64,000 nt of DNA from Patescibacteria group bacterium (GTDB lineage Bacteria > Patescibacteriota > Patescibacteriia > JACRDY01): assembly GCA_041671565.1 (NCBI GenBank), contig JBAZBH010000004.1:9308-73307 (forward strand). Reading direction: 5' to 3'. The notes under the pieces are model-generated. The model was not told the origin of the DNA. It did no database searches and saw only the letters and a program-made list of their open reading frames with translations. Positions 2,864-62,051 of the stretch are shown piece by piece. A program made the position numbers and the translations under genes. The first letter of the stretch is position 1. Each line of letters starts with the position of its first letter.

Positions 2864-3199
2864 ATGTGTGTGTTTTGCCAGATTATTAATAAAGAGATCC
2901 CGTCAAAACTGTTGTTTGAAGATGATGAAATGGTGGCTTTCCCTGATATTAAGCCGTCGACGGCGGTCCACCTTTTAATTGTCCCCAAAAAGCATTTGGC
3001 GTCTTTAGCCGAAGTGGATGACTTGGACCAAGAGCTTTTGGGTCGGCTCTTGTACCGGGCGAAAGAGCTGGCGGCGGAACAGGGGATTGCTGAAGGCGGT
3101 TATAAGATCGTGATCAATACCGGCAAAGACGGCGGCCAAATTGTGCCGCATTTACACCTGCACCTTTTGGGCGGCGAGCCGCTAAAACATCCGGTTTAA
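2864..3199 (+). CDS. HIT-family (histidine triad) nucleotide hydrolase
   Basis: MCVFCQII N-terminus and HLHLHLLGG (HxHxHxx) motif. The 111 aa length fits Hint. The ORF-track start at 2798 would add 22 atypical residues overlapping the repeat. Confidence 0.8.
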   Translation: MCVFCQIINKEIPSKLLFEDDEMVAFPDIKPSTAVHLLIVPKKHLASLAEVDDLDQELLGRLLYRAKELAAEQGIAEGGYKIVINTGKDGGQIVPHLHLHLLGGEPLKHPV

Positions 3200-12500: not shown

Positions 12501-15500
12501 AACGGTCTGGTGGAAATCGGCGAGGAGTGCGATTTGGGGCTGCCAATCAATATTGGCGGCGCGGATAATTATAGATTAAATCAGTGTAACTCTGCCAATT
12601 GTTTGAATGCCGGCGCTCCAATTTTAACAACTTATGCGCCGGCCGGCCCGTTTCAGATTGCCACTTCGGTTAATGAAGGCTTTTCTGAAATCACCGCGGC
12701 GGCCGGCGGGTTTTGCGCTAGCGACCACAGTAAAGCTTGCGTAGCCAATTTTGATTGTCCGGTTAATGACACCTGCGACATTAGCCTCCAAAAGAAGAAT
12801 GACCCGGTGTCCGAACTGGAAGTGGTCTGCCATCTGGCCGCTGAAGATTGCCCTTATTCCACGCCTAGCGACCTTTTTCCCAGAGGACTAGATAGCAATG
12901 GTTGTTGCCGTCTGCGGCCGCAAGTCGCGGTGATGGTGCCGGCCAATAACCCTGACTCGGATTGGGAGTGTGTCGGTCCGGGTACTTGTTCGAGTAACGG
13001 CCGTAGCGCTTGCCTAGCGGATACTTCATGTTCTTGGACTAGAAAAAATGCGGTTTGCCGCAATACCGTGATCACGGCTTCGTTTAACTATCCTGATGGC
13101 ACCGTTACATTAGAGGCCATGGATGCCAGTAGTTTTACCAAAGATAATGTGGTTTTGGAATATAATAACGGCTTGAATGTCTGTCCGGGAGCGCCGGTCA
13201 GTTTCTTACAAAATAAGTTCCCCTGGATTAAAGTGTTTGGCCAAGATGGCTTGTTATCTTGGGGTTATCACAAGTTAGGGGAGCTAGCCAAAAAGTTTTT
13301 GGGCCAAGACGCTTTAGCCGATGCCCGGCCGGAGGATATCTGGTGTCCGGTCAAGTCTTCAGTCACCGGCAGCGGGGATAAATTGGAGGTTAATCTCTTA
13401 GAAATGTTGCCGGCGAATAAGCAAATCCGGGTGGTAGTGAAAGAAGGTGTGAAAGACAGCCACGGCACGCCGCTCGGTAATTTCAATCACCGAATAGTTG
13501 ACGGGCTCGATATCTCTTGCAACGACCGAGATGGCAATGCTAATGGCTGTAATAGTTTTGTTTGGACCTTTAATACCGGCGCGGATATTTGTCTTTTAAA
13601 CCGAGTAGTGGTTGATCCGCTACAGGCTTCTTTGAACTACCATTTTGACGCCGCCACCCAGCTTGATGGCAGTTATTACGACCCGAAAGCCACCGCCAAG
13701 AGTTCTAACGGCCCGATCCAAATGGTGCCGGGGACTTATAGTTGGACTTGGAGTTGGTCTAAGGGCAGTTTGCCGGACGCCGTGGCGACGATGACTGATA
13801 ATCGATATTGTTCCGAAAATCCGTCGCAGGTTTGCACTAATAATACTGTTGCTTGCGCTAATGACAAAGGCGCTTGCACGGCTGACGCCGCGCCGAGCGT
13901 TTTAAAACATTGTTCCGGCGATCCAACGGTTGATTGCACCGCTGACGCCACGGTTTGTAAACCAAATTGCGTTTCTCACGACCAGCAAAAGGTTATGGCC
14001 CAGCAGCAAAACGGCGAAGGTGTGATCACCGCCACGGCTAAAGTTAATCAGGTTGACCCGTCGCTCGTGAGTGAAACTTTACTGGGCGCGGCTTATTCCG
14101 GCGAGTCGCAACTGGTGGTTTTCTTCTGCAATAATCCTTGGCCGCGGGTTTGTAAACATTATGATGCTAATTCTAACTCGTGGTTAACAAGCAGTCCTTT
14201 AACACCTTGTCAGATTGGTGATGATTTACTTGATGATGATTGCGCGGCGGGGGACAGTTGCAGTTTTGACGCTTGGGGACTGGAAGATTCGTCAGACACA
14301 GCGGTTCCGGCTTTCTTAAGCAATCCGGTTTATACCAATTTTAAAACTTATTATTGCCGCGATGCCGGCGCTGCTGACCGGACTAGCGACGATTTGCCCT
14401 CACTCGCTTTCCCGCCAACCGTGATTCCGCCCAATATACAGCCGCTCGGAGTGGGCGGCAGTAGCCAGCTTCTGCGGCACATGCTCCTGCCACGGGCGAT
14501 TGATTCCTCCTTCTGGGGGAGTGAGATTGGCGGTTCCAGCGACGCGGTGATTATCAGCGTGGAAAAAAATATTGAGCACCTTTCGCCGGCGCTTTGGTTC
14601 ACCGAGAAGTTCGGCGGCGCGCCCACGGCGGAAAAAGTTGACGGCTATGAGGCGGTCAATTCGGGCAACACGCATTATATCAACGCCGGTAATTTTGTGC
14701 CGGCCACCGGGGAAACTAATTATGGCCCCTGCGTCTTGCCTGCCGGTAACGGTGTTTGTCGGCTACAACCGTCGTTAGCTTGTCAAAATGACGGGCAGTG
14801 CCGTGTGCCTAGCGATAGTAGTTGGACTAGTAGAACCAGTATCCCTGATCGGAGTTGGCAGTCGGTCGCTTATGGTAATGGTAAATTTGTTGCCGTGGGT
14901 CAAACTGATATAGTGATAACTTCACCGGATGGCATTAACTGGACTAGTCAAACCGCCATTAATAATACCTGGCAATCCGTCACCTATGGCAACGGCATCT
15001 TTGTGGCAGTGAATGATTCTAACACCGGTGATCGGGTAATGACTTCGCCAGATGGCATTACTTGGACCAGCCGACCAGCTGATTATGGCCAATATACTCA
15101 ATGGCAATCCGTCACCTTTGGCAATGGTAAATTTGTGATGGTGAATAGCAATGGTACTGGCAATCAAGCGATGACTTCACCGGATGGCATTAATTGGACT
15201 AGTCAAACCACGCCGACCCCCAATAATAGTTGGTCTGCCGTCACCTACGGCAATGGTTTGTTTGTGGCCGTGGCTGATTCTGGCGCTGGCGTAATGACTT
15301 CACCGGATGGCATTACTTGGACCAGCCGCACCGCCGTTGATAGTGAATGGCGATCTGTCACCTATGGCAACGGCTTATTTGCAGCCGTGGCAATATCATC
15401 TGGCTCCCATCCTAGAGTAATGACCTCACCGGACGGCATTACTTGGACTAGCCGAACTGCCCCGGCTCAGCTTTGGTCATCCGTCACCTATGGCAATGGC

Positions 15501-18500
15501 TTGTTTGCGGCCGTGGCTTATTCTGGTACCGGCAATCAAGCCATGACTTCACCGGATGGCATTACTTGGACCAGCCAAACTCCCGCTCATAATTTTTGGT
15601 CCGCCGTCACCTATGGCAATGGCTTGTTTGTGGCGGTGGCTTATGGCGGCGGCACTGGCAATCGAGTGATGACTGCTTCGCTCTCAGCCGGTGGGGAAAC
15701 CGATTATGGGCCTTGTGATATTGCTACCGGCGGCACTTGTGAACTCAACTCGTCTTTAGCTTGCCAAAATGATGGCCAGTGCACGGTTCATAGCGGCGGC
15801 GGTGTCAACGATCGTTTATACACCAATATTTACATTTTGTCCCAGACCGAGAATTCTAATTCCAACACCAATAATATCTTCCAACAGTTGTTGAGGAATT
15901 TAACCTTTAACACCAATATCCCCAGCTCTAATACTTGTTTTAAACAAATCGGGGCCACCCCCCAAGAAATTTTGGACGCCGATGGCAATCCGGTGGTCTG
16001 TAGCCAAGATGCCGACTGTTATCGCTGTTCTCCGAACATTTCTGTCGCCAATCCTAACCCGGATAAGATTTGCGAGATTAGTGACGATTGCGCGGCGCCC
16101 GGAACCACGGCGTTGGAGTGTGATGCCGATCGTCCCGGTGTCACCATTACTTGCAACAGCCCCAAACTTAAAGTTACCCGCAATGTCAAACGGGCGGCGG
16201 ATATTCATGATACGCGCAGTCTCCTGGCGGCCTATGGCGAACAGCATAAAGTTGATAATATCAAAACTTACCCGAGTTTAGCCGCCGGCAGTTATCTTAA
16301 TGGCCAATCTTACAGCGCTTGGCCGTCCTGGCAGGCGACGCTGGGCAATGCGCTTGGCCGCACGCTGGCAATTGATCCGCTGAATGCTTTTTATGGTTGT
16401 AGCGCGCCTTATAATTCTACCACTTGCTGGGACCAGAAGACCCTGCGGTTTGCTTGTCCGGCGAAGTCTTACACCTATTATTACAGCGTGGCGCCGGATC
16501 TGAAGACTTATCGGCTGCTGGCTAATTTTGAGCAGTTTAGCACTACGCCGATAGCCGATCTTTGGGATGTGTTTAAAGATTATGAAAGCGTATTGCAGGA
16601 GGTTTGTTATAACTTTGAAGGGCGGAATTTTGACGATTACGACCAGGACGGTGTCAAAGACAGCGTGGATAATTGTCCGGGCGACAAGAATGGCTATACC
16701 TTGCCTTGCGACGGTTCTAATGACGGACTGTGCTGTCCGTACGACGATGTTCGCTTTTGTTGCCCTTATTATAATCCTGATATGCCAGATACTGATCCGG
16801 GTTTTGATGCCATGATAGCGGCGGTACGGGATAATTGCGGCCACACCAGGACCGGCCAAGCCGATACTGACGGTGATGGTATTGGCAATACTTGCGAAGA
16901 TTGTCCGAATGACGCCAACCATAATGACGCGGATAACGACGGCTTATGTGGGCAGGAGGATAATTGCTGGATGATTAGTAACCCAGAACAATTGGATAGT
17001 GATAATAGCTGTCCGGAGCCGCCATTTTATACCAGCGGCGCTGATCCCCAAACTTACGATCCGGCCTGCGGCGATGTTTGCGATTCTACCTGTCGCGGCC
17101 TGGGCGATGATGATTGCCAACAGGTTTGTGAGGGTAATAATAATGTTTGGTTAAATCAGGGCGGGCAGTCTAACTGTTGCGGCGACGATCCGGGTGAAGG
17201 CGCGGTGGGGACGATTGAAACCGGTAGCCAGTGCTTTGACGGCATTGACAACAACTGCGACGGCCGGATTGACGAAAGTGTTGACCCGGACAGCGACGGC
17301 GCCGGCTCCTGCGACCGGCCGGTGGCGGATTGTAATAACGATCCCGCCAGCCGTCCCGTTAGCGGTTCCGATATCTATCCTGGGGCAACCGAAGATTGTT
17401 ATAATAATATTGATGATAATTGCAATGGATTACTCGACGCCGCTGATCCGCAGTGCGCTCTTGTTACTTTTTCTCTTTCTGAAGCCATAACCCCGACTAC
17501 CGATTCTTATTATATTAAATTTACTAAAGATGATGATCCTAATTTTGTCGGTATGGTCGGGGCGCCGCAGGGCGTTTCCTATGGCCTACCCAATGAATTA
17601 GTTTGTTTTGGCACTAATACTTCCGGTGTCGTGCCAGCGCCATACCGAGCCTGCTTTGATAAATCCGGGCAAAGACCATTTTCAGATTTTCAAGGGTTTA
17701 TTTTGCCAGTCGGTAACTATACGGCCGAGATTTATCCAATTGAACCTAGTTCGGCGGTTGGCGATTATAGCCTGACGGCCAGCCAAAATGTTGCCGTTAC
17801 TGATATTTCTCATCCTAGCTGTGTTAATAATAACTACCTTAATTATGGCGCGGCTGACGGCGGACATTGCCTGCCGTGGAGCCATACCGAGTTTTGGGCC
17901 GACGCCTCTGATTGCGCCCTGACTGTCGGGGGGAACCATTATACTGATCCTAACTATTTACAAGCTTGGGGCGTGGATGGAAATGTTTTAACCACGCCAA
18001 CGAGAGAGCAACAACATTGTTTCAATCTCGCGCCGACTGATAAATATTACACTTTTCGGTTGGATAGCGACCATAGTGTTTTAAACGCGCCTTTACCCGA
18101 CTTTGAAAATACTTTTGTCGGCGCTGAATATGATTGGCAAGGTGTGGCTTATGGCGAGAACACATTTGTGGCGATTAGCGCTGACAAGGTAATGACTTCA
18201 GCTGACGGCGCCACTTGGATTGCCCGTAACGGTGGCGGCATGCAAGATTGGCATAGTGTGGCCTATGGCGGTGGCAAATTTGTGGCCGTAGCCAATAACG
18301 GCCACGCTGGCCTTAAAAGGGTGACGATTTCCGATGACGGCATTACTTGGCGGTATGGGATGTCTACCGGAGATCGAGAGGATGATTATCAGAGCATTGC
18401 TTATGGCGGTGGCAAATTTGTGGCCGTGGCTAGCGGCACTGGCAATCGAGTTATAACTTCGTCTGATGGCATCGCCTGGACTGCCCACGCTACTCCAAAC

Positions 18501-19082
18501 AACAATGATTGGCAAAGTGTGGCTTATGGCGTTGTCCAGAGCCGCGGCACATTCGTGGCCGTGGCTAATTCCGGCACCGGCCGGATTATGACTTCAACGG
18601 ATGGCGCCAGTTGGACGGCTTTAAATATCGGCGACGCTTATGATTGGCAGAGTGTGGCTTATGGCGAGGGCAAGTTTGTGGCGGCGGGCACTGATAGCGC
18701 GGGCAAATTAGTTGAAGCCTTTTCCGATGGCGCTAGTTGGACAGTCAATGTTTCGGCTAATACCGGCAAAGTGTATGCCTTGGCTTATGGCGGCGGCACA
18801 TTTGTGGCCGTGGTTGATAGCGCCGCGGGTAAGCAAGTAATAACTTCACCTGATGGCGCTAGTTGGACACCTTCGCCCAACCACACGCTGGATAATGATT
18901 GGCGGAGCATTGCTTATGGCGGCGGTAAGTTTGTGGCCGTGGCTAGTTCCGGCGTGGGCAACCGAGTGATGACTTCTTATAATGGCATTGATTGGGAACC
19001 CCAAGCCGCGGCGGTTTCGCCTAACCCAGTTTATTGGGATCCGGATGTTTTAATTAAATTTAGGTTTACCGTTACACATTAA
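6549..19082 (+). CDS. Giant (4177 aa) surface/adhesin-like protein with the same N-terminal pilin-like domain, followed by IPT/TIG domains, Cys-rich repeats, TSP3 Ca-binding repeats and two BNR/Asp-box beta-propellers
   Basis: N-term DIRVLIANIIRYALGLLGIVAVVICLYGGWLYMTSQG...LAFAIVSLVF. IPT/TIG-like ITEVDPGNGAPGNFITIYGKFFG (x3). CGNGxxExGEECD Cys-rich repeats. DQDGVKDSVDNCPGD / DTDGDGIGNTCEDCPND TSP3 repeats. About 7 + 8 repeats of WxSVxYGNGxFVAV...MTSPDGITWT, where SxDGxTW is the BNR/Asp-box. Confidence 0.8.
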   Translation: MFKKFSKIFLVLGLTAVLLLTAFGVRTALAADATDLGLSYVSNNTILPTGDIRVLIANIIRYALGLLGIVAVVICLYGGWLYMTSQGNEEQTTRAKAVLRDGLIGLAIILLAFAIVSLVFNFLVNATNPGESCAPGDPPRGCNWAPGPNCSGTQRCESNNRWGGCIPNYPIPPECELRDQFYIHHFSPPPYPPVTDPSKIGYWHAIKVRNATEEITFSMAVNPETLFETAPDSAASTAEPAFIVSKTFLSLSGVDYSDHLVMTASKTGNGIEILSNGQNVAPLADGINNFKWAVVKVTGGNWSGDNITVIFRTDQITNQGDLESWLGQHNDIDAGNYTVVNIFAVEIAAAGVGHDYFTEFPPAATYAAGSDPAGSIYLNYSAAEAAQSGSARIKVYNLGITYDPASADPARHLDAVGQQLKDMSEADLKALMLPDKQVAGDLVVVNGTIVAFNPSAPCPAGHETFFCFDQNTAYGVLVLPGVESQTGKRLLVDSAWPDFAYFLTGDKIDTEAPAVTLNMPFEGQGVCADQFNLSPAQSNLQSDARDDTEITRVAYSVYDASGPRGQLPIHYFIDGGTGKIMPNTEALWHIDYPSGGPLPDKYISYGSWDTYGFTFVTPPPPRVTVKAEAHDWNLSVEDSNTVVMRADHCCNGKKDLDETGVDCGGAWCGGCDGDACSLDTQSCQPDPTLCASSFCDPTTCVCRHLPIITEVDPGNGAPGNFITIYGKFFGSQIGQVVFLGAAGAGDDKVAKLPNEINPACGNTWQDEQIVVAVPTGAVDGPIKVVTAGGLEDTTESGPLHQRYPEEVVMTFDVNLTLRPGACLLRPASGKFSEQVDIVGTGFGLGTGTSDKVYFGTIVGPAVANSWTQTTVGAQVPNIAGGQTVAVKVQVGAEQSNGLRFNVTDEGDNNFPQINYLDPVDGNIGQYVTIFGKNFGGDTGTVLFTYNAGSEAQTAWGDFNFPAGCGQTWSDSQIIVKVPPSFLSIGEVPGGPLVLNVNYKVSVKRRNDGAESNAVTFSTVDRALSPGICRLNPDNGPEGTPVYALGENFGASDEEKNGFLFFSLTKADNVARAGVPLWGDTAAKVFVPAEANTGPAYLYNQGYFPYTGKSNEVGFRVGACTQNLCNNYPDGLACNSGNRGQHAPDGARCWLCLANGWEWDYTAADCSSQFKDCCDDGVCLDKKSTNPQPCATRGNNSSLAWAFSTGEIPVYPRVVEECTQSLSCNQANLPSPSPWTPDFDIDREYELACSNSVITARFTAPMKPTSFIYLTARSPDVYKDGTGAIQPASATATVEVKKCVTAVVVDNHFISCSNWDNPLPGEPEMPPSPDSFQFYPGSKAVGTALDPDSWYQVTLFGRPAGQTSGGLVGVNDYPLQQNYVWQFKTRSAADEPCKVGCVTVTPPSVTARFLGPLHHYSADGIEGDLWYHQAFISAEDSPCNLINASAYGWLWYATQNEFIRKGARVNHIAYNRVNGAPDKQLVTAQFETAGLPVLLWAEETSSHHKNKGDVYVDLVDPQIIARWPDCGTACVNAQIGAAFNTEMVANDFDSADTVQLFSCGTDATCSGVMASVPISDVFYQDQDQRATLPPGHYFHELTFNASAALLPNIYYRVVIKNTVQSVDGVFLTIPNAADRYDSNPQDGNVDGYSWIFKTKNDFNLCAIGRVAVSPAAAKLIWIPDYQFFGAQAYGFPDDCNQYGQRLVNSSYAWDWAATDKANEPPYENPVARISQVPAVGCGNGLINRGEDCDAGPRNGLVGSGCTTQCLHTGSVAGGTCRNGVVDVGEECDYGELVNNDDDSTNYSLKYCDSVTCLRLGNGNSGTVCGNGLLEPGEACDTLFEPNGDDSDGCTDHCTHSGSLPLAAGGTCGDGRVGLGEECESCLVCQGGTAANNCSAKEPTAAACIMPCSVRTATTPYWECTGATGCSAKGETSCRADNACVWTRRTLACETPTASSEGCYTNCLLLNGDLYKYSGSNYSTSMSVCHNGLVEIGEECDLGLPINIGGADNYRLNQCNSANCLNAGAPILTTYAPAGPFQIATSVNEGFSEITAAAGGFCASDHSKACVANFDCPVNDTCDISLQKKNDPVSELEVVCHLAAEDCPYSTPSDLFPRGLDSNGCCRLRPQVAVMVPANNPDSDWECVGPGTCSSNGRSACLADTSCSWTRKNAVCRNTVITASFNYPDGTVTLEAMDASSFTKDNVVLEYNNGLNVCPGAPVSFLQNKFPWIKVFGQDGLLSWGYHKLGELAKKFLGQDALADARPEDIWCPVKSSVTGSGDKLEVNLLEMLPANKQIRVVVKEGVKDSHGTPLGNFNHRIVDGLDISCNDRDGNANGCNSFVWTFNTGADICLLNRVVVDPLQASLNYHFDAATQLDGSYYDPKATAKSSNGPIQMVPGTYSWTWSWSKGSLPDAVATMTDNRYCSENPSQVCTNNTVACANDKGACTADAAPSVLKHCSGDPTVDCTADATVCKPNCVSHDQQKVMAQQQNGEGVITATAKVNQVDPSLVSETLLGAAYSGESQLVVFFCNNPWPRVCKHYDANSNSWLTSSPLTPCQIGDDLLDDDCAAGDSCSFDAWGLEDSSDTAVPAFLSNPVYTNFKTYYCRDAGAADRTSDDLPSLAFPPTVIPPNIQPLGVGGSSQLLRHMLLPRAIDSSFWGSEIGGSSDAVIISVEKNIEHLSPALWFTEKFGGAPTAEKVDGYEAVNSGNTHYINAGNFVPATGETNYGPCVLPAGNGVCRLQPSLACQNDGQCRVPSDSSWTSRTSIPDRSWQSVAYGNGKFVAVGQTDIVITSPDGINWTSQTAINNTWQSVTYGNGIFVAVNDSNTGDRVMTSPDGITWTSRPADYGQYTQWQSVTFGNGKFVMVNSNGTGNQAMTSPDGINWTSQTTPTPNNSWSAVTYGNGLFVAVADSGAGVMTSPDGITWTSRTAVDSEWRSVTYGNGLFAAVAISSGSHPRVMTSPDGITWTSRTAPAQLWSSVTYGNGLFAAVAYSGTGNQAMTSPDGITWTSQTPAHNFWSAVTYGNGLFVAVAYGGGTGNRVMTASLSAGGETDYGPCDIATGGTCELNSSLACQNDGQCTVHSGGGVNDRLYTNIYILSQTENSNSNTNNIFQQLLRNLTFNTNIPSSNTCFKQIGATPQEILDADGNPVVCSQDADCYRCSPNISVANPNPDKICEISDDCAAPGTTALECDADRPGVTITCNSPKLKVTRNVKRAADIHDTRSLLAAYGEQHKVDNIKTYPSLAAGSYLNGQSYSAWPSWQATLGNALGRTLAIDPLNAFYGCSAPYNSTTCWDQKTLRFACPAKSYTYYYSVAPDLKTYRLLANFEQFSTTPIADLWDVFKDYESVLQEVCYNFEGRNFDDYDQDGVKDSVDNCPGDKNGYTLPCDGSNDGLCCPYDDVRFCCPYYNPDMPDTDPGFDAMIAAVRDNCGHTRTGQADTDGDGIGNTCEDCPNDANHNDADNDGLCGQEDNCWMISNPEQLDSDNSCPEPPFYTSGADPQTYDPACGDVCDSTCRGLGDDDCQQVCEGNNNVWLNQGGQSNCCGDDPGEGAVGTIETGSQCFDGIDNNCDGRIDESVDPDSDGAGSCDRPVADCNNDPASRPVSGSDIYPGATEDCYNNIDDNCNGLLDAADPQCALVTFSLSEAITPTTDSYYIKFTKDDDPNFVGMVGAPQGVSYGLPNELVCFGTNTSGVVPAPYRACFDKSGQRPFSDFQGFILPVGNYTAEIYPIEPSSAVGDYSLTASQNVAVTDISHPSCVNNNYLNYGAADGGHCLPWSHTEFWADASDCALTVGGNHYTDPNYLQAWGVDGNVLTTPTREQQHCFNLAPTDKYYTFRLDSDHSVLNAPLPDFENTFVGAEYDWQGVAYGENTFVAISADKVMTSADGATWIARNGGGMQDWHSVAYGGGKFVAVANNGHAGLKRVTISDDGITWRYGMSTGDREDDYQSIAYGGGKFVAVASGTGNRVITSSDGIAWTAHATPNNNDWQSVAYGVVQSRGTFVAVANSGTGRIMTSTDGASWTALNIGDAYDWQSVAYGEGKFVAAGTDSAGKLVEAFSDGASWTVNVSANTGKVYALAYGGGTFVAVVDSAAGKQVITSPDGASWTPSPNHTLDNDWRSIAYGGGKFVAVASSGVGNRVMTSYNGIDWEPQAAAVSPNPVYWDPDVLIKFRFTVTH
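14850..15700 (+). repeat. Tandem ~135 nt coding repeats (7 BNR/Asp-box blades) inside the giant ORF
   Basis: Repeated ...tggcaatccgtcacctatggcaatggc...atgacttcaccggatggcattacttggacc... Confidence 0.65.
18128..19005 (+). repeat. Second tandem BNR/Asp-box blade array (about 8 blades) at the C-terminus of the giant ORF
   Basis: Repeated DWQSVAYGGGKFVAV...MTSxDGxxWT units. Confidence 0.6.
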
Positions 19083-23244: not shown

Positions 23245-24405
23245 ATGGCTGAGGTCAAGCCCGACATTGAAACTTTTGCCAAGATAAAAGTTTTGGGCAT
23301 CGGCGGCTCCGGCGGTTCGGCTCTCAACCGGATGATCGCCGCCAAAATTAAAGGCGTGGAATTTATTGCCATCAATACCGATGTGCAAGCGCTTTATTAT
23401 TGTCAGGCGCAGAAGAAAATCCATATTGGCAAGGCGGTGACCAAGGGCCTCGGCGCCGGCATGGATCCGGATTTGGGCCGGTCGGCGGCGGAAGAAAACC
23501 AAAACGAGATCCGCGACGCGGTGCGTGACGCTGATATGATTTTTATCACTTGCGGGCTAGGCGGCGGCACTGGCACGGGCGCGGCGCCGATTGTCGCCGA
23601 GATTTGCCGCGATGTTGGGGCGTTGACGGTCGCAGTAGTCACCAAGCCGTTTGCTTTTGAAGGCGCGCAACGGCGGGCGATCGCCGAAAAAGGTTTGGAA
23701 GAATTGCAGAGCCGGGTGGACACGATTATCACTATTCCCAATGACCGCCTCCTGCAAATTATTGATAAAAAAACCCTGCTTTTGGACGCTTTTAATATCG
23801 TTGACGACATCTTGCGCCAAGGCGTGCAGGGCATTTCCGAGTTGATTACCATTCCGGGTTTGATCAATGTGGACTTTGCCGATGTTAAGGCGATCATGAA
23901 AGACAGCGGTTCGGCTTTGATGGGCATTGGCCAGAGTAAAGGCGATAACCGGGCGATTGAAGCCGCTAAATCGGCGGTTGCGTCGCCGCTTTTGGAACTT
24001 TCCATGGAAGGCGCCAAGGGCATCTTATTTACCATTTGCGGTTCTAAGAATCTAGCCATGCAAGAGGTGAGTGAGGCGGCGAAGGTGATTACCGCTTCGG
24101 CTGACCCGGACGCTAAGATTATCTTTGGCGCGGTGATCAATGAAGACATGGGCGATGACATCAAGATTACGGTGGTGGCGACCGGTTTTGAAAAAGGCCG
24201 CAAGCCGTCGGAGGCCATGAATCAGCCGACCGGTTATAAGCCCAGCCGGTTTATTAGCCGGCGCCAAGACGAGGCGGAGGCCGAAGAGAGCGATGACGAA
24301 GATGATGTTAAGCCGCGGGTTTTCGGGCGCAAAAAAGTAGAAGATAAGCCGGCAGATGATGAGGAATTGGATATCCCGGCTTTCATCAGAAAAAAAATGA
24401 AGTAA
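23245..24405 (+). CDS. ftsZ: Cell division GTPase FtsZ
   Basis: [13 protein letters not shown], tubulin signature [10 protein letters not shown], acidic C-terminal tail with DIPAFIRKK. Confidence 0.95.
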
Positions 24406-24802
24406 ATTAGATAGCGGAGTAACGAGGCCTCTGGCCTCGTTGTGTTTTTAGCACAATCTCAGGTTGTGTTTTTTAGTTTATCTTACTAATTTTCTTTTGC
24501 CCATCGCCTGCGGCGGGCTTTGCTACTTTCTGTGACCAGAAAGTAGCGCAAAGAGTCCCGGGGTGGCCCCGCATGCGCAGGGGCAGGCAAAAAGCCCGAT
24601 CTTCGTGGCACCTGGGTTCTTCTCGCCCCGCCTCACCTCGCAGTCGCTACCTTTGGTTCTATTACCCCTATATATCGCTTTGCGGCAACATATATTTACT
24701 AGTTAGTAGAAAGGGTCGGTTCGTCTCGGTCCGCCAACTGGCGGACACCCCGGACCCCGATTCTGGTTGGTTTTGTACTTTTGAATAAAAGACACTGTAG
24801 AG
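24406..24802 (+). repeat. ~400 nt non-coding element, copy A (second copy at 48556-48989)
   Basis: Shares with copy B the 5' block aaattagatagcggagtaacgRggcc..ggcc.cgttgtgttttt, the core tactttctgtgaccagaaagta..aaagagtc..gggg, gttcttctcgccccgc and the 3' block ttttgaataaaagacactgtagag. Confidence 0.6.
24421..24449 (+). terminator. Intrinsic terminator after ftsZ
   Basis: aacgaggcctctggcctcgtt hairpin + gtgttttt. Confidence 0.6.
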
Positions 24803-24888: not shown

Positions 24889-26298
24889 ATGGCATTAAAA
24901 CTCCACAATACTTTAACGCGGCAAAAGGAAGAATTCCGCCCGTTACGGGGCAAAAAGGTCACGATGTATCATTGCGGCCCGACGGTTTATTGGACTCAGC
25001 ATATCGGTAATCTGCGGGGGATGGTGATGGCTGATTTAGTAGTTCGGACCTTGAAGTATCTGGGCTATAAAGTTAAATTGGCGCGCAATTACACTGATGT
25101 TGGCCACCTAACTTCCGACGGTGACGAGGGCGAGGATAAGATGGCAAAGGGCGTTAAGCGGGAAGGCTTGTCGCCGCGCCAAATTGCCAAGAAATATATC
25201 AAAATTTTTGAGCATGATTATCGCGCCGTGAATGTTTTGGAGCCGGATTATAAGCCGCGCGCCACCAAGTATATTAAGGAAATGATTAAGTTGGTGCAGG
25301 AGTTAATAGCCAAAGATTATGCTTATCCGACTGATTTAGCGATATATTTTGATGTAACTAAGGCGGCTAATTACGGCCAACTTTCCGGCCAAGGGTTAGC
25401 TGATAAACTGGAAGGCGCGGGTAAAGGCGAGGTGGAAGACGGGCAAAAAAAACACCCGGCGGATTTTGCTTTATGGTTTTTTAAAGCCGGACGGCACCAA
25501 AACGCGCTGCAATTTTGGCCCTCGCCGTTTCAGTCGCCTTTAGTAAGAAGGGGGATTGGTTTTCCTGGCTGGCATATCGAGTGTTCGGCCATGGCGCGGA
25601 AACTGCTTGGCAAAACTCTGGACCTGCACATGGGCGGCATTGAACATATTGCTGTCCATCATACTAATGAAATCGCCCAGAGCGAAGCGGCTAATGGCGT
25701 CAAATTCGTTAATTATTGGCTCCACAACGAACATTTGTTAGTCAATGACCGCAAGATGGCCAAATCCGAAGGCACGGGCTACAGCTTGGCGGAAGTGGAG
25801 GAAAAAGGTTTTGGCCCACTCGCGCTCCGTTTTTTCTTTTTGCAGGCGCATTACCGCGGCAAGCAGAATTTTACTTGGGAAGCGCTCGGCGCGGCCGCGA
25901 GCGGACTCCAAAATATTTATAACCAAGTTAGGGAATTGGGCGGTAAAAAGGGCAAAATTAGCATTGAGTTTAAAAATAAGTTCATCGAGAAAATTAGCGA
26001 CGATTTCAATTTACCGCAGGCTTTAGCCGTAGTTGCCGAGATGTTGAAAGCGGATTTGCCGGCCAAAGATAAGCTGGCGACGATTTTGGATTTTGATAAG
26101 GTTTTGGGGCTGGGTTTAGGCAAACTGAAAAAAGAAAAACTAACCATCCCAGCGGCAGTTAAACAGTTGGCTGAAGACAGATTAAAGGCCCGTTTGGTTA
26201 AAGATTGGGCTAGATCTGACGAGTTGAGAAAGAAAATCGGGGAGCTGGGTTACACGGTTGAAGACGATAAAGACGGTTATCAGATCAAAAAAAAGTGA
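24889..26298 (+). CDS. cysS: Cysteinyl-tRNA synthetase
   Basis: MYHCGPTVY..HIGN (HIGH), KMAKSEGT (KMSKS), Cys-binding GWHIECSAM. Confidence 0.9.
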   Translation: MALKLHNTLTRQKEEFRPLRGKKVTMYHCGPTVYWTQHIGNLRGMVMADLVVRTLKYLGYKVKLARNYTDVGHLTSDGDEGEDKMAKGVKREGLSPRQIAKKYIKIFEHDYRAVNVLEPDYKPRATKYIKEMIKLVQELIAKDYAYPTDLAIYFDVTKAANYGQLSGQGLADKLEGAGKGEVEDGQKKHPADFALWFFKAGRHQNALQFWPSPFQSPLVRRGIGFPGWHIECSAMARKLLGKTLDLHMGGIEHIAVHHTNEIAQSEAANGVKFVNYWLHNEHLLVNDRKMAKSEGTGYSLAEVEEKGFGPLALRFFFLQAHYRGKQNFTWEALGAAASGLQNIYNQVRELGGKKGKISIEFKNKFIEKISDDFNLPQALAVVAEMLKADLPAKDKLATILDFDKVLGLGLGKLKKEKLTIPAAVKQLAEDRLKARLVKDWARSDELRKKIGELGYTVEDDKDGYQIKKK

Positions 26299-26345
26299 TA
26301 ATTTAATAAAGAGACGCGCCGCGGCGCGTCTCTACTAGTGCTAAC

Positions 26346-26900
26346 ATGTCAGATGATAAATTTAAGAATAAATATCGGATACCGTCGGCGCGTTTAAAAA
26401 ATCATGATTATTCCGGGGTTGGTCTATATTCGGTGACCATTTGTGTGAAAGATAGAAAATGTTGCTTGGGGGAGATTAAAGACGACAAGGTGGTTTTATC
26501 AGCGATTGGAGAGATAGTTAGAGAAGAATTGCTAAAAACGCCACAAATGCTGCCGAATGTTTTATTGGATACCTGGATAATAATGCCGAATCATATTCAT
26601 GCCATTTTTGAGATCATGTCTACCGGCGTAGAGACGCGCCGCGGCGCGTCTCCGCAGAATCAATTTGGTCAAATTTTTAGAAATTCCATCCCCGTTATTA
26701 TTAATCAATTTAAGGGTTCGGTCGTTCGTCGCATAAACCAAAAATACGGCCCCGGCCATTTTGCCTGGCAACCGCGCTATTACGACCATATCATCGCCGA
26801 TGAAAGGGAATATAACAATGTTGCTCAGTATATTCTGGATAACCCGAGCCAATGGCCGAAAGACGAGAATAACCCAGTAAACTTTAAAAATGCCAAATAA
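26346..26900 (+). CDS. REP-associated tyrosine transposase (RAYT) / IS200-like Y1 HUH transposase
   Basis: HuH motif IIMPNHIHAIF and catalytic Tyr region QPRYYDHII. The palindrome gagacgcgccgcggcgcgtctc lies upstream (26311-26334) and again inside the ORF (26628-26651). Confidence 0.75.
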   Translation: MSDDKFKNKYRIPSARLKNHDYSGVGLYSVTICVKDRKCCLGEIKDDKVVLSAIGEIVREELLKTPQMLPNVLLDTWIIMPNHIHAIFEIMSTGVETRRGASPQNQFGQIFRNSIPVIINQFKGSVVRRINQKYGPGHFAWQPRYYDHIIADEREYNNVAQYILDNPSQWPKDENNPVNFKNAK

Positions 26901-36165: not shown

Positions 36166-36290
36166 AGGAGATTTGATGAACGGAAGGGTTTAATAGGTTG
36201 ATAGGTTGTTAAGTCGTTAGGTGGTTATGGCGCCGCCTGCGGCGGCGCAAACCTAACAACTTAACGACCTATCAACCTAACCACTATTCT
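36166..36290. repeat. TAGGTNGTTAGG-word palindromic element (family with 36686-36760, 56116-56212, 56775-56830)
   Basis: ggtttaataggttgataggttgttaagtcgttaggtggttatggcgccgcctgcggcggcgcaaacctaacaacttaacgacctatcaacctaacc. Confidence 0.65.
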
Positions 36291-36291
36291 T

Positions 36292-36684
36292 ATGTCCAAA
36301 ATCCTCGGCATCGACTACGGCAGTAAAAGGATCGGCCTGGCGCTCGGCGACGAAGAAAGCCGTCTCGCTCTGCCTTTTGATGTCGTCGATAACCAGCGGG
36401 GGATGATTGGCGAATTGCGGCGGATTATTGAAGGCGAAAAAATTTACCGGCTGGTGGTCGGGTTGCCGCTTAACATGTCCGGCGGCGAGACCCAAAAAAC
36501 CGCTGAAGTCCGGCAGTTTATTGAGCTACTCGAACAAAATTTTAATCTGGCGGTGATTACCGAGGATGAACGGTTGACTTCCAAGGCGGCCGACAGCCTT
36601 TTCCGTTCTTACCGGCAAAAATACGACCGCGACGCCATCGCCGCGATGGTGATCTTGCAGGGGTATTTAGATAAAATCAAGTAG
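36292..36684 (+). CDS. ruvX: Putative pre-16S rRNA nuclease / Holliday junction resolvase-like YqgF
   Basis: ILGIDYGSKRIGLALGD RNase H-like N-terminus. Confidence 0.85.
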   Translation: MSKILGIDYGSKRIGLALGDEESRLALPFDVVDNQRGMIGELRRIIEGEKIYRLVVGLPLNMSGGETQKTAEVRQFIELLEQNFNLAVITEDERLTSKAADSLFRSYRQKYDRDAIAAMVILQGYLDKIK

Positions 36685-36685
36685 G

Positions 36686-36760
36686 CAGGTGGTTAGGTCG
36701 TTAGGTCGTTAGGTTTGCGGCGCCATAACCACCTAACTACCTATCAACCTAACCACTACC
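36686..36760. repeat. TAGGTNGTTAGG-word element
   Basis: gcaggtggttaggtcgttaggtcgttaggtttgcggcgccataaccacctaactacctatcaacctaacc. Confidence 0.6.
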
Positions 36761-48555: not shown

Positions 48556-48989
48556 ATAAATTAGATAGCGGAGTAACGGGGCCTTTGGCCCCGTTGTGTT
48601 TTTCGGAATGACCCCGCCGTGGCGGGGTCATTTTAGTTTGACCAAATAAGTTTATTTCGCTCCTGCGCGGGTCTTAACCGGCTGGTTTAGTAGGATGGCG
48701 AGTAGGGGCAATCCACGAATTGCCCTAAACTAATTACCTTAATTTATTACCTAAGTTTAGCCCTCGCCGGGTAGGCGTTACTTTCTGTGACCAGAAAGTA
48801 ACCAAAGAGTCTTGGGGGTTCCAGACGCGCGACTGCTCGCCACCTTAGTTCTTCTCGCCCCGCTCCGCCACTCCCGCTCGTCCGCCTCCGGCGGACTCGA
48901 CTCCCGTGGCTCCGCTCGGCGCGGCCTTCCGCCCCCAAACCCCCGACTGCTTGGCAATTATTATCTTTTGAATAAAAGACACTGTAGAG
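48556..48989 (+). repeat. ~430 nt non-coding element, copy B (see 24406-24802)
   Basis: Same conserved 5' terminator block, tactttctgtgaccagaaagta core, gttcttctcgccccgc and 3' ttttgaataaaagacactgtagag as copy A. Confidence 0.6.
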
Positions 48990-53965: not shown

Positions 53966-54055
53966 AACGCCAAAGCAATTTATATTTCAAGATTTAAGAA
54001 AATTAATTACTGAGTTTTATTCTTAAATCCTAAATCTTAATTCTTAAATCTATTC
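53966..54055. repeat. TTAAGAATC / TTCTTAAATC-word repeat
   Basis: caagatttaagaaaattaattactgagttttattcttaaatcctaaatcttaattcttaaatc. Confidence 0.5.
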
Positions 54056-54058
54056 ATT

Positions 54059-55480
54059 ATGAAAACCTACATCAACGAAACTTTAACTAAAGTTGGGGAG
54101 ACGGTGGAGCTCAAAGGCTGGGTGCATGTTAAGCGCGATATGGGCAAGATTTCTTTTATTGATCTGCGCGACTCCACCGGGATTATTCAAGTCGTTTTGG
54201 TGCCCGGGGAAATGGATGAGAGCAAAGATTTGGTCAAAGAATTGCGGCCGGAGTTTGTGGTGGCGATTAAAGGCGTGGTTCAGGAACGGAATGCCAAGAG
54301 CGTTAACGCGGAAATGCCGACTGGCAAAATTGAGGTGCTCGCCAAAAATTTGGTGATTATCAATGAAGCGGCCCTGGCGCCGTTTGAGATTAACACCGAA
54401 GAGCGGCAGGCGAACGAAGAACTGCGGTTGAAATACCGTTATTTGGACCTGCGCCATCCGCGCCTCGCTAAAAACTTGCAAGCGCGTTCGGCGGTTATCC
54501 GCTTTGTGATTGATTATCTGGCGGATCAAGGTTTTACTTATCTGCAAACGCCGATTTTGTCCAAATCCACTCCCGAAGGCGCTCGCGATTACTTAGTCCC
54601 TTCCCGGGTGCACCAGGGCCAGTTTTTCGCGCTACCGCAGTCGCCCCAGCAGTATAAACAGCTTTTGATGGTGGCCGGCTTTGAACGATATTTTCAAATC
54701 GCGCCGTGTTTCCGTGATGAAGACGCGCGGGCCGACCGCAGTCCGGGCGAGTTTTATCAACTGGATATTGAAACTTCATTTTTCAGCCAAGACGAGATTC
54801 TCCAGTTAGTCGAAGGCATGTTCACCACCATGATTAAAAAACTGTTTCCGGAAAAGCATTTTACTTTTTCACCTTGGCCGCGGTTAAAGCACGACGAAGT
54901 TAAGGCGAAATATCAGAGCGACAAGCCGGATCTGCGGAAAGATAAAAATGATCCGAATGAATTGGCTTTCGCCTGGGTAGTGGATTTTCCGCTCTTTACC
55001 GAGCAGAGAGAAGACGATTTTTTCCATGGTTCGGGAGCCGGTAAGTGGGCGCCGTCGCACCACATGTTTACCCGACCGAAAGACGAGGACTTGGCGCTTT
55101 TAGACAAGGATCCGGGCAAAGTCCATTCTTATCAGCATGATTTAGTCTTGAACGGCATTGAGGTGGGCGGCGGGTCGGTCAGAATCCACGACCCGAAACT
55201 CCAGGAAAAGGTTTGGGATTTAATTGGTTTTACCGCCGCGCAGAAAGAGCAGTTTAAGCATTTGATTGAAGCTTTCCAATACGGCGTGCCACCGCATGGC
55301 GGTATCGCGCCGGGTTTAGATCGGCTGGTTTCACTTCTTTGCGGCGAAAAAAATATCCGTGAAGTGATCGCTTTCCCCTTGACCGGCGACTGCCGCGATC
55401 CGTTGATGGAAGCGCCATCCGCCGTAACCAAAGAACAGTTGGATGAGCTCGGAATTGAAATTAAAAAAAAGAAAAAATAA
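54059..55480 (+). CDS. aspS: Aspartyl-tRNA synthetase, short form lacking the GAD insertion
   Basis: FRDEDARADRSPGEFYQLDIETSF (AspRS motif 2), QSPQQYKQLLMVAGFERYFQIAPCFRDE, GGGSVRIHD, GIAPGLDRL (motif 3); 473 aa. Confidence 0.85.
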   Translation: MKTYINETLTKVGETVELKGWVHVKRDMGKISFIDLRDSTGIIQVVLVPGEMDESKDLVKELRPEFVVAIKGVVQERNAKSVNAEMPTGKIEVLAKNLVIINEAALAPFEINTEERQANEELRLKYRYLDLRHPRLAKNLQARSAVIRFVIDYLADQGFTYLQTPILSKSTPEGARDYLVPSRVHQGQFFALPQSPQQYKQLLMVAGFERYFQIAPCFRDEDARADRSPGEFYQLDIETSFFSQDEILQLVEGMFTTMIKKLFPEKHFTFSPWPRLKHDEVKAKYQSDKPDLRKDKNDPNELAFAWVVDFPLFTEQREDDFFHGSGAGKWAPSHHMFTRPKDEDLALLDKDPGKVHSYQHDLVLNGIEVGGGSVRIHDPKLQEKVWDLIGFTAAQKEQFKHLIEAFQYGVPPHGGIAPGLDRLVSLLCGEKNIREVIAFPLTGDCRDPLMEAPSAVTKEQLDELGIEIKKKKK

Positions 55481-55821: not shown

Positions 55822-56115
55822 ATGCGTCTTTCCGCCTTACAACGGCATATCTTGCGCCAGTGCTTCCAGGCGCGAAAAAAACTTAGCCGGGCGCGGTTAG
55901 TTGATTTTTATAATAACGCCAAAAACAAACCAAAAAGCGAGGACCAAATTAATATCATTACCAAGAGTATTGAGCGGCTGATTACTAAAGGCCTGTTAGT
56001 CGGTTACGGCGTTAAAACCGCGGAAAAGTGGTTTATTCGCGAGATTAGCTTGACGCGGGCAGGCCAAAAGGCGGCGCGCGAGGCGCTGGGCAAACAGCAG
56101 AAACTCAAGATTTAG
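55822..56115 (+). CDS. Small basic hypothetical protein, possible winged-helix
   Basis: SD aggagg 8 nt upstream; basic 97 aa. Confidence 0.4.
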   Translation: MRLSALQRHILRQCFQARKKLSRARLVDFYNNAKNKPKSEDQINIITKSIERLITKGLLVGYGVKTAEKWFIREISLTRAGQKAAREALGKQQKLKI

Positions 56116-56212
56116 TTGTTAGGTTGTTAAGTTGTTAGGTAGTTAGGTGCGGCTCCGCCGAAGGCGGAGCCGCCATAACGACTTAACGACCTAACTACTT
56201 AACCACTACTTT
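56116..56212. repeat. TAGGTNGTTAGG-word palindromic element
   Basis: ttgttaggttgttaagttgttaggtagttaggtgcggctccgccgaaggcggagccgccataacgacttaacgacctaactacttaacc. Confidence 0.65.
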
Positions 56213-56213
56213 T

Positions 56214-56774
56214 ATGATCAACCAAAAAGTCCTCAACTACCTTAATAAACAAAAAGTTGGCTTCACCGTGATTGACCACAAAAAGATTTTTACGGCTTAT
56301 GATTTGGCGCAGACGCTTAAAATGGATTTAAAAAAAGTTGCCAAAACACTACTGGTGCAAGCCGACAAAAAGTTTGTGATCGTGATTGTGCCGGCGCATT
56401 ATCGGCTGGATTTTAAAAAGCTCAAAAAAGTTCTAAAAGCGAAGCAAATCAAGATTCCTTCCGAGAAGATTATGGAAAAAGTTTTAAAGGTGAAAGTTGG
56501 CGGCATCACGCCGTTTGGCGCTTTGCACGGGCTGGAAACGGTGGTGGATAAGAGCCTCTTAAAAACTCAAGAAACCATTCTTAACGCCGGCAGTTTTACC
56601 CAGAGTTTGCGGTTGAAAGTTAAGGATTTCCTTAAAATGGAAGAAGCTAGACTCGGCAGTTTTGTGGAATCGGCGGGGTATAAGAAGCCAAAGGTTAATA
56701 AACCCAAAAAAGTGAAAGCCAAAAAGGCAAAGAAAATTAAGAAAGTTAATAGAGTTAATAAAAAGAAAAAATAG
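56214..56774 (+). CDS. ybaK: YbaK/ProX-type aminoacyl-tRNA deacylase domain protein with Lys-rich tail
   Basis: FTVIDHKKIFTAYDLAQTL...VKVGGITPFG; C-terminal KPKKVKAKKAKKIKKVNRVNKKKK. Confidence 0.65.
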   Translation: MINQKVLNYLNKQKVGFTVIDHKKIFTAYDLAQTLKMDLKKVAKTLLVQADKKFVIVIVPAHYRLDFKKLKKVLKAKQIKIPSEKIMEKVLKVKVGGITPFGALHGLETVVDKSLLKTQETILNAGSFTQSLRLKVKDFLKMEEARLGSFVESAGYKKPKVNKPKKVKAKKAKKIKKVNRVNKKKK

Positions 56775-56830
56775 AATCTAACTACCTAACTACCTATCAA
56801 CTTAACAACTTAACTACCTAACAACTAATC
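56775..56830. repeat. CTAACTACCTA-word repeat
   Basis: aatctaactacctaactacctatcaacttaacaacttaactacctaacaactaatcc. Confidence 0.55.
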
Positions 56831-56918
56831 CTATGACTTGTGGTTGCTGTTGCGGCGGGATGAAGAAAAAAACCGCCCCCAAAAAGAAAGTTAAAAAAGC
56901 GAAGAAAAAATAAACTCT

Positions 56919-57605: not shown

Positions 57606-57815
57606 TAGCAGAATCAAGAATCATGAATTAAGAATCAAGAGTAAATGCCCAATGTCCAAATACCAATGACCAAGCAAACTTAGCAGCCGCATACGACATA
57701 CCATATACGATATACCGACCAAGATGATAAGTAGTTAGAATGGGAATAAAGAATTAGGAAATTAAGATCCGCCAGCTGGCGGGCTTAATTCTTAATTCTT
57801 AATTCTTAATTCTAC
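57606..57815. repeat. Composite element (GAATCAAGAATCATGAATTAAGAATC arms + CCAATG fragment + catacgacataccatatacgatatacc core); inverted copy of 28438-28640
   Basis: cagaatcaagaatcatgaattaagaatcaagagtaaatgcccaatgtccaaataccaatgacc...gcttaattcttaattcttaattcttaattc. Confidence 0.65.
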
Positions 57816-57819
57816 TTTT

Positions 57820-58374
57820 GTGTCTACCCTAAAATCCAAACTCGAAAGCCTATTATTCATTTCGCCGAAGCCTTTGTCGCTCGGTAAACTTGCCGAACTG
57901 ACCGAACAAGGCAAAGAAGCGGTGGGTGAGGCGCTAAAACAGCTAATGGTGGAAACTGCCGATCGTGGCATCGTCATTAAGCAGGCGGATGATAAATTTC
58001 AAATGATGACTAGCGGCGACAACCATAAGCTGGCGCAGGATTTTGTTAAAGAAGAAATCACCGGTGAATTAACGCGGCCGTCACTGGAAACTCTAACCGT
58101 GGTTGCTTACCGCGGGCCGATAACCAAAACCGAGCTGGAGTTGATCCGCGGCGTGAACTGCAGTCTGATTTTACGGAATTTAATGATTCGCGGGCTAGTG
58201 GAAGAGAGCGAAGACAAGCAACGGGGTTTGCTTTATCAGGTTACGCTTGATTTTCTCAAACATTTAGGCCTGCAGCAGATCAGCGATTTGCCAGATTACC
58301 AAAAATTAAACCAAGATGAAAATCTGCAAAAACTGCTCGCCGCGACGCCGACAGCGCCAGAAGCCGTTGAATAA
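57820..58374 (+). CDS. scpB: Segregation and condensation protein B
   Basis: LESLLFISPKPLSLGKLAEL ... tandem winged-helix; GTG start. Confidence 0.85.
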   Translation: MSTLKSKLESLLFISPKPLSLGKLAELTEQGKEAVGEALKQLMVETADRGIVIKQADDKFQMMTSGDNHKLAQDFVKEEITGELTRPSLETLTVVAYRGPITKTELELIRGVNCSLILRNLMIRGLVEESEDKQRGLLYQVTLDFLKHLGLQQISDLPDYQKLNQDENLQKLLAATPTAPEAVE

Positions 58375-62045: not shown

Positions 62046-62051
62046 CTTTTT

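Follow-up and report, generated by a model that had tools for sequence, protein, structure and literature searches.

The same GTAG-footed palindrome lies upstream of and inside a RAYT-type nuclease gene in a Patescibacteria genome

Why would a nuclease gene carry, within its own reading frame, a second copy of the hairpin that stands just ahead of it? The question arises in a 64-kb stretch of contig JBAZBH010000004.1 from a Patescibacteria group bacterium (assembly GCA_041671565.1); this whole stretch is called the window here, and all copy counts at genome level cover the window only. The gene encodes a protein resembling the tyrosine transposases associated with repetitive extragenic palindromes (REPs), known as RAYTs or TnpAREP. 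We consider it very probable that it is a single-copy, vertically inherited ('domesticated') RAYT of the type classed as TnpA-Y1 subclass 2.4, and that both palindromes are its cognate REPs, the internal one being an in-frame insertion. The gene and its two palindromes are the following.

26346-26900, plus strand: gene for a RAYT/TnpAREP-like Y1 HUH nuclease of 184 aa, with motifs of the subclass 2.4 type
26310-26336, minus strand: upstream REP, a 24-nt perfect palindrome, AGAGACGCGCCGCGGCGCGTCTCT, followed by AC, with its GTAG foot on the minus strand (5′-GTAGAGACG...)
26628-26652, plus strand: internal in-frame REP, GTAGAGACGCGCCGCGGCGCGTCTC, encoding V-ETRRGAS

The 22-nt palindrome GAGACGCGCCGCGGCGCGTCTC occurs at exactly two sites in the window, 26311-26332 and 26631-26652. 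The number of sites stays at two when up to 3 mismatches are tolerated or when the pattern is relaxed to GAGACG-N(2-24)-CGTCTC, against 0.00 and 0.02 matches, respectively, expected from shuffled sequence. These searches bear out a first-pass annotation of the window, which had reported the palindrome 12 nt upstream of the start codon and again within the open reading frame (ORF) as ETRRGAS; only its coordinates for the second copy, 26628-26651, were 1-3 nt off. The run common to both copies extends to 23 nt (AGAGACG...GTCTC), and the upstream copy is a perfect palindrome of 24 nt (26310-26333). It lies in the 47-nt spacer between the cysteinyl-tRNA synthetase gene (cysS) and the RAYT gene, 12 nt from the cysS stop (26298) and 12 nt from the ATG at 26346. 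The codons of the internal copy are GAG ACG CGC CGC GGC GCG TCT (ETRRGAS, residues 96-102), and they lie ten residues C-terminal of the segment MPNHIHAIF. As single-stranded DNA (ssDNA), each copy is predicted to fold into a hairpin of 9-10 bp (-12 to -14 kcal/mol).

Both copies have the form that defines the GTAG-tagged REP superfamily, a palindrome with GTAG at one end. The internal REP has its GTAG foot on the plus strand and a degenerate 3′ foot (CCGC for CTAC); the upstream REP has CTAC on its 3′ side, which places GTAG on the minus strand. Each retains one of two possible GTAG feet, and by foot orientation the two form an inverted pair. RAYT genes generally have REPs on both sides in inverted orientation. 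Here, no REP was found downstream near the RAYT gene, where the next gene (dus) overlaps the stop codon, and it is the internal copy that pairs, in inverted orientation, with the upstream REP.

The arrangement is not an assembly artefact, because two independent public assemblies, ENA ERZ27249449 (whose contig k141_417858 is of the same strain) and Logan SRR18595301, carry identical DNA (100% identity to the window over 421 nt, across both copies); the orientation is the same and intact in all three available assemblies. The exact 184-aa protein has no record in the contig index, and the public-data gene call for this DNA gives a 117-aa product, P0001. We considered P0001 as a 5′-deleted variant and rejected this reading, since the underlying DNA is the same as in the window and the gene call is merely shorter.

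The first-pass annotation had assigned the 184-aa ORF to the RAYT-type Y1 HUH nucleases from its MPNHIHAIF motif, and comparisons of sequence and predicted fold bear this assignment out. Pfam Y1_Tnp matches above its cutoff (27.2 bits) over the C-terminal half only, and NCBIfam REP_Tyr_transpos matches partially (E = 5e-15), in two stretches around a loop; the half-match and the split match both point to a domain interrupted in its middle by an insertion. A profile of 44 homologues matches a single solved structure, that of Escherichia coli TnpAREP (4ER8), whose LPEHMH aligns with MPNHIH and whose WQPRFWEHAIRN...YIYINP aligns with WQPRYYDHIIAD...YILDNP. An AlphaFold (AF2) model with a predicted local distance difference test score (pLDDT) of 86 likewise has 4ER8 as its top Foldseek match (E = 1.6e-7), with ISDra2 and IS608 TnpA as runners-up. 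Sequence identity to the 4ER8 protein is about 18-20%. Three segments of the gene correspond to the active site and the recognition site of the E. coli enzyme.

26592-26600, plus strand: HUH codons H83-I84-H85 (in MPNHIHAIF), with H83 and H85 invariant in the 44 homologues
26766-26798, plus strand: segment WQPRYYDHIIA, aligning with the GTAG-guide residues W94, Q95, E100, H101 and R104 of E. coli TnpAREP (PMC6006769)
26829-26846, plus strand: Y motif YILDNP, with the putative catalytic Tyr162 and metal ligand Asn166

Alignment to E. coli TnpAREP makes Y162 (in AQYILDNP) the probable catalytic tyrosine and N166 the probable third metal ligand, equivalent to Y115 and N119. This displaces the proposal in the first-pass annotation that the catalytic tyrosine lies in PRYYDHII; WQPRYYDHII corresponds instead to the GTAG-recognition segment, with W141-Q142 aligned to W94-Q95 of the E. 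coli protein. H83, H85, W141, Q142, Y162, N166 and P167 are all invariant in the 44 homologues.

The internal palindrome falls between these conserved segments, in a part of the protein that varies among homologues.

26616-26687, plus strand: variable loop, residues 91-114, between the HUH strand (83-90) and a helix (115-134)

Residues 91-114 are coil in the AlphaFold model, and the REP-encoded peptide (residues 97-103) has a pLDDT below 50, which places the internal REP in a low-confidence, probably disordered loop. The protein has more than 1,200 relatives, and we surveyed 80 homologous loci from genomes of many phyla, in which 74 genes were scorable (73 for the mismatch and spacer counts). 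A perfect hairpin between HUH and WQ, defined by a stem of 9 or more, is present in 50/74 of these genes; with 2 mismatches tolerated, the count is 59/73, whereas a control segment of these ORFs gives 23%. The palindromes vary from genome to genome and mostly take the form GTAG-(AGACG / GGGC...)-...-CTAC, and 33/50 are perfect through their centre, compared with about 6% expected if a stem with a free 4-nt loop sufficed.

The reading frames of these palindromes bear on what is being conserved. In 27 cases the GT[AG]G foot has its G in codon position 1 and in 13 cases in position 2; position 3, which would produce a TAG in frame, is never used. One palindrome read in two frames yields the peptides VET..ASLQ and RD...VST, and peptides of both kinds recur after the HUH motif in the alignment (VETRRGASLQ, VETHCNASLQ, RDAPWRVST and PRRGVST) in a segment of hypervariable length. 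The same palindrome is thus read in both permissible frames, and the conserved unit is the DNA palindrome and not the peptide. HUH and WQ lie 43 to 103 aa apart in a comparison of 73 loci. The shortest of these spacers (43-54 aa) occur in hairpin-less genes, and some homologues carry 2-3 tandem or decayed internal copies. Short REP-less loops and tandem or decayed copies fit repeated insertion into a permissive loop, and the comparison with homologues suggests that the internal copy of the window behaves in the same manner, as an in-frame insertion into the variable loop. The first-pass annotation had suggested such an insertion and had reasoned that it would be contradicted if orthologues shared the segment as coding sequence without palindromic character; the orthologues are palindromic at the same place, with different sequences.

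The internal palindromes also resemble those beside their own genes. In a longest-common-substring test, in which the gene start was taken from the start of the protein match, the internal copy shares a run of at least 12 nt with its own flank (up to 1 kb) at 17/50 loci, compared with 2% for flanks of other loci. Matching copies are concentrated close to the gene, at 0.58 per kb up to 300 nt away, and thin out to 0.008-0.03 per kb beyond. The one syntenic orthologue found, P0002 (loci L081 and L082), allows the pair of palindromes to be followed between genomes in the context of two neighbouring genes.

24889-26298, plus strand: cysteinyl-tRNA synthetase gene (cysS), directly upstream of the RAYT gene; syntenic in L081, with 76% aa identity
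26890-27837, plus strand: dihydrouridine synthase-like gene (dus), overlapping the RAYT stop; syntenic in L081, with 69% aa identity

The orthologous locus has the order cysS-RAYT-dus-corA and 62% aa identity in the RAYT itself, and it keeps both the cysS-RAYT-dus order and the overlap between the RAYT stop and the start of the dus-like gene, which is 11 nt in the window. L081 has palindromes at both equivalent positions, GTAGAGACGCATTGCGATGCGTCTCTAC upstream and GTAGAGACGCATTGCAATGCGTCTCTAC inside the gene, which match each other and differ from the window pair, suggesting that the upstream and internal copies turn over together. In L081, as in most homologues, the REPs are double-footed. The presence of one gene copy in the window and the synteny in L081 and L082 are in line with the general traits of RAYTs and REPtrons, reportedly set out by Nunvar 2010 and by Bertels & Rainey 2011, under which these genes are single-copy, vertically inherited and not insertion sequences. 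A synteny check of the homologues with about 50% identity (P0004, P0005, P0008 and P0012) found none to be syntenic. In four related loci of the Patescibacteria type the internal REP stands alone, the flanks holding no partner within 2.5 kb.

Two further observations concern these related loci. The Patescibacteria metagenome-assembled genome (MAG) GCA_028714455.1 carries two RAYT paralogues, L085 and L088, in different contexts; their internal REPs differ (GTAGAGACGCATTGCAATGCGTCTCTAC and TGTAGAGACAGGGTATACCCTGTCTCTACA, respectively), and no REP flanks either gene within 2.5 kb. In some homologues (L081, positions 2983-3030; P0002 and P0021), gene calls begin at an ATG within the upstream REP, giving spurious 'MRLY...' N-termini; REPs near gene starts mislead annotation.

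Outside the window, the 22-mer is found in at least 119 metagenome contigs, nearly always as the double-footed GTAGAGACGCGCCGCGGCGCGTCTCTAC, that is, GTAGAGACG...CGTCTCTAC. When RAYT homology around such sites was tested by tblastn with the 44 homologues, 76/85 metagenome sites had none within the locus examined; of these 76, 33 are bordered by 1 kb or more on each side, and the other 43 have less than 1 kb on one side, so that a RAYT could lie beyond the locus sequence. Among 45 sites without RAYT homology that lie at least 600 nt from the locus ends, 23 fall in stop-free frames of at least 150 aa. Judged by these matches, the palindrome is a widespread GTAG REP type and not private to the RAYT gene. 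It is notable that the 28-mer GTAGAGACGCGCCGCGGCGCGTCTCTAC is identical across organisms as different as 34-70% in GC content (loci L089-L168).

How might a hairpin come to reside in the gene of the enzyme that acts on it? By analogy with E. coli TnpAREP and IS608, the RAYT would recognise the GTAG-footed hairpin in ssDNA and would cut and rejoin it there. The internal REP would be a tolerated in-frame insertion that adds about 8 disordered residues to a surface loop between the HUH strand and helix alphaC, and the gene with its two REPs would constitute a minimal 'REPtron'. We infer that the internal copy arose, and stays identical to its neighbour, through a preference of the enzyme for acting in cis on or near its own gene, the route being insertion or replacement of copies on ssDNA at the replication fork and not selection on the peptide. 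A cis-preferring enzyme and a loop that tolerates extra residues would together let copies accumulate in and beside the gene.

Transcription of the locus adds a possible secondary effect. A promoter scan gives no promoter-like site between cysS and the RAYT gene, which makes it probable that the RAYT gene and its housekeeping neighbours share one cysS-RAYT-dus transcript. Within the shared transcript, the two hairpins might incidentally affect cysS 3′-end stability and RAYT translation; such modulation may come as an added effect, and not as an alternative explanation. An intrinsic terminator was considered at each palindrome and rejected, as the promoter and terminator scan is blank at both and neither hairpin is followed by a T-tract.

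We also entertain, as a doubtful extension of the preferred reading, that the in-gene REP is a selected 'safe-harbour' master copy, sometimes the sole local substrate, which would make RAYT and REP together a unit complete in itself and passed on vertically. Where a streamlined genome leaves hardly any intergenic space, the enzyme could regenerate or homogenise its own hairpins or gate its own expression. The identical copies in the window, the replacement of both in the orthologue, the four loci with an internal REP only and the 33/50 perfect centres are all consistent with such a role.

Several observations weigh against reading the locus as a subclass 2.4-type RAYT with two cognate, co-evolving REPs. 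The window contains just the two copies in 64 kb, both at the gene, and no dispersed REP population is seen in it. Position 151 (26796-26798), which aligns with the GTAG contact R104 of E. coli, is Ala in the window, Thr in the syntenic orthologue and Arg or Lys in 39/44 homologues; together with the single-footed REPs, Ala151 suggests that GTAG recognition may be altered, relaxed or weakened. Hairpin cleavage by the window protein is expected by analogy with E. coli TnpAREP, an enzyme of subclass 2.2. The Y motif, YILDNP, has D at the fourth position where the published YIxNNP has N, a position at which close homologues have N, D, T or L, and the assignment to subclass 2.4 is made from motifs and the REP-in-gene feature, not with the hidden Markov models of the authors who defined the subclass. 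Finally, the window 22-mer is also the internal REP of L087 (50% aa identity), and the L081 variant is also internal in L085; a limited set of variants thus recurs in distant homologues, and identity within a locus is therefore no proof of recent copying.

The same evidence can be set against other explanations of the two palindromes. Their function might chiefly be one of host regulation, the upstream copy serving as a stabiliser, terminator or operator at the 3′ end of cysS and the internal copy as a brake on a potentially toxic nuclease. REPs typically sit downstream of ORFs, and the upstream copy, 12 nt past the cysS stop, is in just such a position (PMC3733652); both hairpins are strong, and the lack of a promoter-like site ahead of the RAYT gene would put them within one mRNA. 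However, the terminator scan and the missing T-tracts speak against termination, and a cysS-specific role cannot explain why palindromes of this family accompany RAYT genes in many phyla and vary together with the flanks of those genes. As regulation and a role as enzyme substrate are not mutually exclusive, the hairpins could still have a regulatory effect, but that this is their chief function seems to us improbable. We judge it very unlikely that the pair forms a self-acting switch, in which recombination of the two copies by the enzyme would flip or cut out the 5′ half of the RAYT gene and so toggle its expression. The geometry is suited to it, with facing GTAG feet 297 nt apart on copies identical over 23 nt and inverted by foot, and Y1 enzymes of the HUH type (IS608, E. 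coli TnpAREP) do cut and rejoin ssDNA at such hairpins; yet all three assemblies show one intact orientation, and the four related loci with only an internal REP indicate that the pair is not required.

We give hardly any credence to the locus being an autonomous, mobile insertion sequence of the IS200/IS605 type, with the palindromes as its left-end and right-end subterminal hairpins. The Y1 HUH fold common to IS608 and ISDra2 TnpA, the match to the Pfam family named 'Transposase IS200 like' and a hairpin just 5′ of the gene, as at an IS200 left end, would all suit such an element. The second hairpin is intragenic, however, with none downstream, where the stop overlaps dus; the window holds one gene copy, and the cysS-RAYT-dus position is kept where the housekeeping neighbours are only 69-76% identical. 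Moreover, the residue four positions after the tyrosine is Asn, as in TnpAREP (N119), and not Gln as in IS608 (Q131; PMC6006769), and the hairpins are GTAG-footed REPs. We regard as negligible the chance that plain coding conservation, or a random match with coincidental identity to the upstream copy, accounts for the internal palindrome. The palindrome is in frame, as coding sequence would be, but shuffled sequences predict zero matches, the palindromes that homologues have at this site differ in sequence and are read in two frames, and the encoded segment is a low-confidence loop that some members lack.

The window contains other repeats. The first-pass annotation had linked the enzyme to 'hairpin-rich intergenic repeats', which are probably a set of 8-nt periodic inverted arrays, (GGTNGTTA)n facing (TAACNACC)n, that form long imperfect hairpins between genes (about 1177-1265, 36189-36286, 36681-36758, 56115-56208 and 56771-56835). 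The link does not hold up: these arrays, like the other repeats, have no sequence in common with the RAYT palindrome, which has no further copy in the window. Other intergenic repeats consist of AATGTCCAATGACCAAT-like units and their complement (GGACATTGG...) at 295-470, 57625-57698, 60832-60905 and 61854-62006, and often adjoin TCTTAAATCTTAAAT-type arrays (54014-54078, 57784-57820, 60960-61016 and 62022-62074). Long tandem repeats in coding sequence, with units of about 123-135 nt (about 42 aa; ...YGNGKFVAV...MTSPDGITW...), occupy 14850-15680 and 18120-19000 in two large ORF regions and are probably beta-propeller-like surface protein repeats.

Two paralogous non-coding elements, at 24404-24802 (399 nt) and 48558-48989 (432 nt), each begin at the stop codon of the gene upstream, an ftsZ-like ORF in one case and a 586-aa ORF in the other. 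Their ends are identical (21 nt on the left, AAATTAGATAGCGGAGTAACG, and 25 nt on the right, CTTTTGAATAAAAGACACTGTAGAG) and their interiors have otherwise diverged, apart from two hairpins, one of them terminator-like and close to the left end on its inner side, the other internal and common to both elements (TACTTTCTGTGACCAGAAAGTA and CAAAGAGTC). Neither element has an Rfam match; Rfam searches of the whole window at gathering thresholds, and of two sub-regions at E <= 1, returned tRNAs and noise only. The elements could represent a new non-coding RNA or a mobile element resembling miniature inverted-repeat or palindrome-associated transposable elements. Only the second copy contains, at 48702-48725, the sequence GTAGGGGCAATCCACGAATTGCCC, a GTAG-footed hairpin of the 'GTAGGGGC' REP type, the type that serves as cognate palindrome at RAYT loci L016 and L076; this hairpin may represent a second class of REP, as an orphan copy.

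RAYTs rank with the best examples of transposase domestication, and the window offers a clean minimal case, one enzyme and two hairpins, for RAYT action on its own locus. The lineage and the cysS-RAYT-dus context are new here; the arrangement itself was already known, and this instance probably extends it to a Patescibacteria lineage, among ultra-small bacteria. The current picture is thus confirmed and not changed, with numbers added on the two reading frames, the co-variation with flanks and the joint turnover between orthologues. The case would gain weight if it were true that the in-gene REP is a selected, self-acting substrate.

The closest known system is TnpA-Y1 subclass 2.4, described bioinformatically only, in one paper, by Quentin, Siguier, Chandler & Fichant 2018 (BMC Genomics 19:475; PMC6006769), who identify an in-frame REP in tnpAREP as the unique feature of this subclass. 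Its other traits are NH[IFV]H, WQ and YIxNNP motifs, a length of about 194 aa and 'long' or 'double foot' REPs, and it ranges over Cyanobacteria, Bacteroidetes and various other phyla (PMC6006769). Subclass 2.4 corresponds to RAYT group 4 of Bertels et al. 2017, in which repeat numbers are modest, at about 14 occurrences per replicon. A literature search for later functional work on subclass 2.4, or for RAYTs in Patescibacteria, yielded nothing beyond PMC6006769. The window gene has NHIH at residues 82-85 (N82 in 43/44 homologues), W141-Q142 ahead of the GTAG-recognition segment and a similar length, and it likewise has no C-terminal extension domain; its Y motif, YILDNP, comes close to YIxNNP, with D in place of the first N. 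It shares the hypervariable insertion between beta3 (the HuH strand) and alphaC, a GT[AG]G-footed REP within +/-1000 nt (the 26310-26336 copy, single-footed) and an in-frame REP in the gene (26628-26652). Its homologues include Fischerella, Nostoc, Marinifilum and other Cyanobacteria and Bacteroidetes, as in PMC6006769. By these sequence traits the gene very likely belongs to the subclass 2.4 type, for which the phenomenon has already been published as a hallmark; the duplicated hairpin that the first-pass annotation called unusual is so in general, but not within this subclass. The window departs from the published members in its lineage, with MAGs of Patescibacteria (the candidate phyla radiation, CPR) as the nearest named homologues, and in its single-footed REPs, Ala151, operon-like cysS-RAYT-dus block and lack of a downstream REP.

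Binding and cleavage of a REP as ssDNA by a RAYT have been shown only for E. coli TnpAREP (subclass 2.2, 4ER8), which, with its REPtron, was reportedly described by Ton-Hoang 2012 and Messing 2012. The E. coli enzyme and the window protein have the same HUH, WQ...H and YIxxNP layout, a single gene copy and GTAG REP hairpins. E. coli REPs, however, number in the hundreds, are bulged, imperfect palindromes located solely outside genes and lie on both sides of the gene, and TnpAREP has no loop insertion, whereas the palindromes of the window are perfect through their centre and one of them lies within the ORF. TnpA of the IS200/IS605 family (IS608, ISDra2; subclass 1.1) shares the Y1 HUH fold and the hairpin-guided ssDNA chemistry. 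Elements of that family are mobile and occur in multiple copies, their left-end and right-end hairpins lie outside the gene, and the enzyme has a Y...Q signature, whereas the window gene is present once, in a syntenic housekeeping context, has its second hairpin within the ORF and encodes Y...N.

In-frame palindromes at permissive surface positions, each adding a short peptide, are also a feature of the Rickettsia palindromic elements (RPEs), reportedly described by Ogata et al. 2000. Intragenic REPs in other genes, recorded together with GTAG REPs by Di Nocera et al. 2013 (PMC3733652), are likewise of this kind. What sets the window apart from both is that its host gene encodes the enzyme thought to mobilise the repeat, and that the same loop receives the palindrome across the whole subclass.

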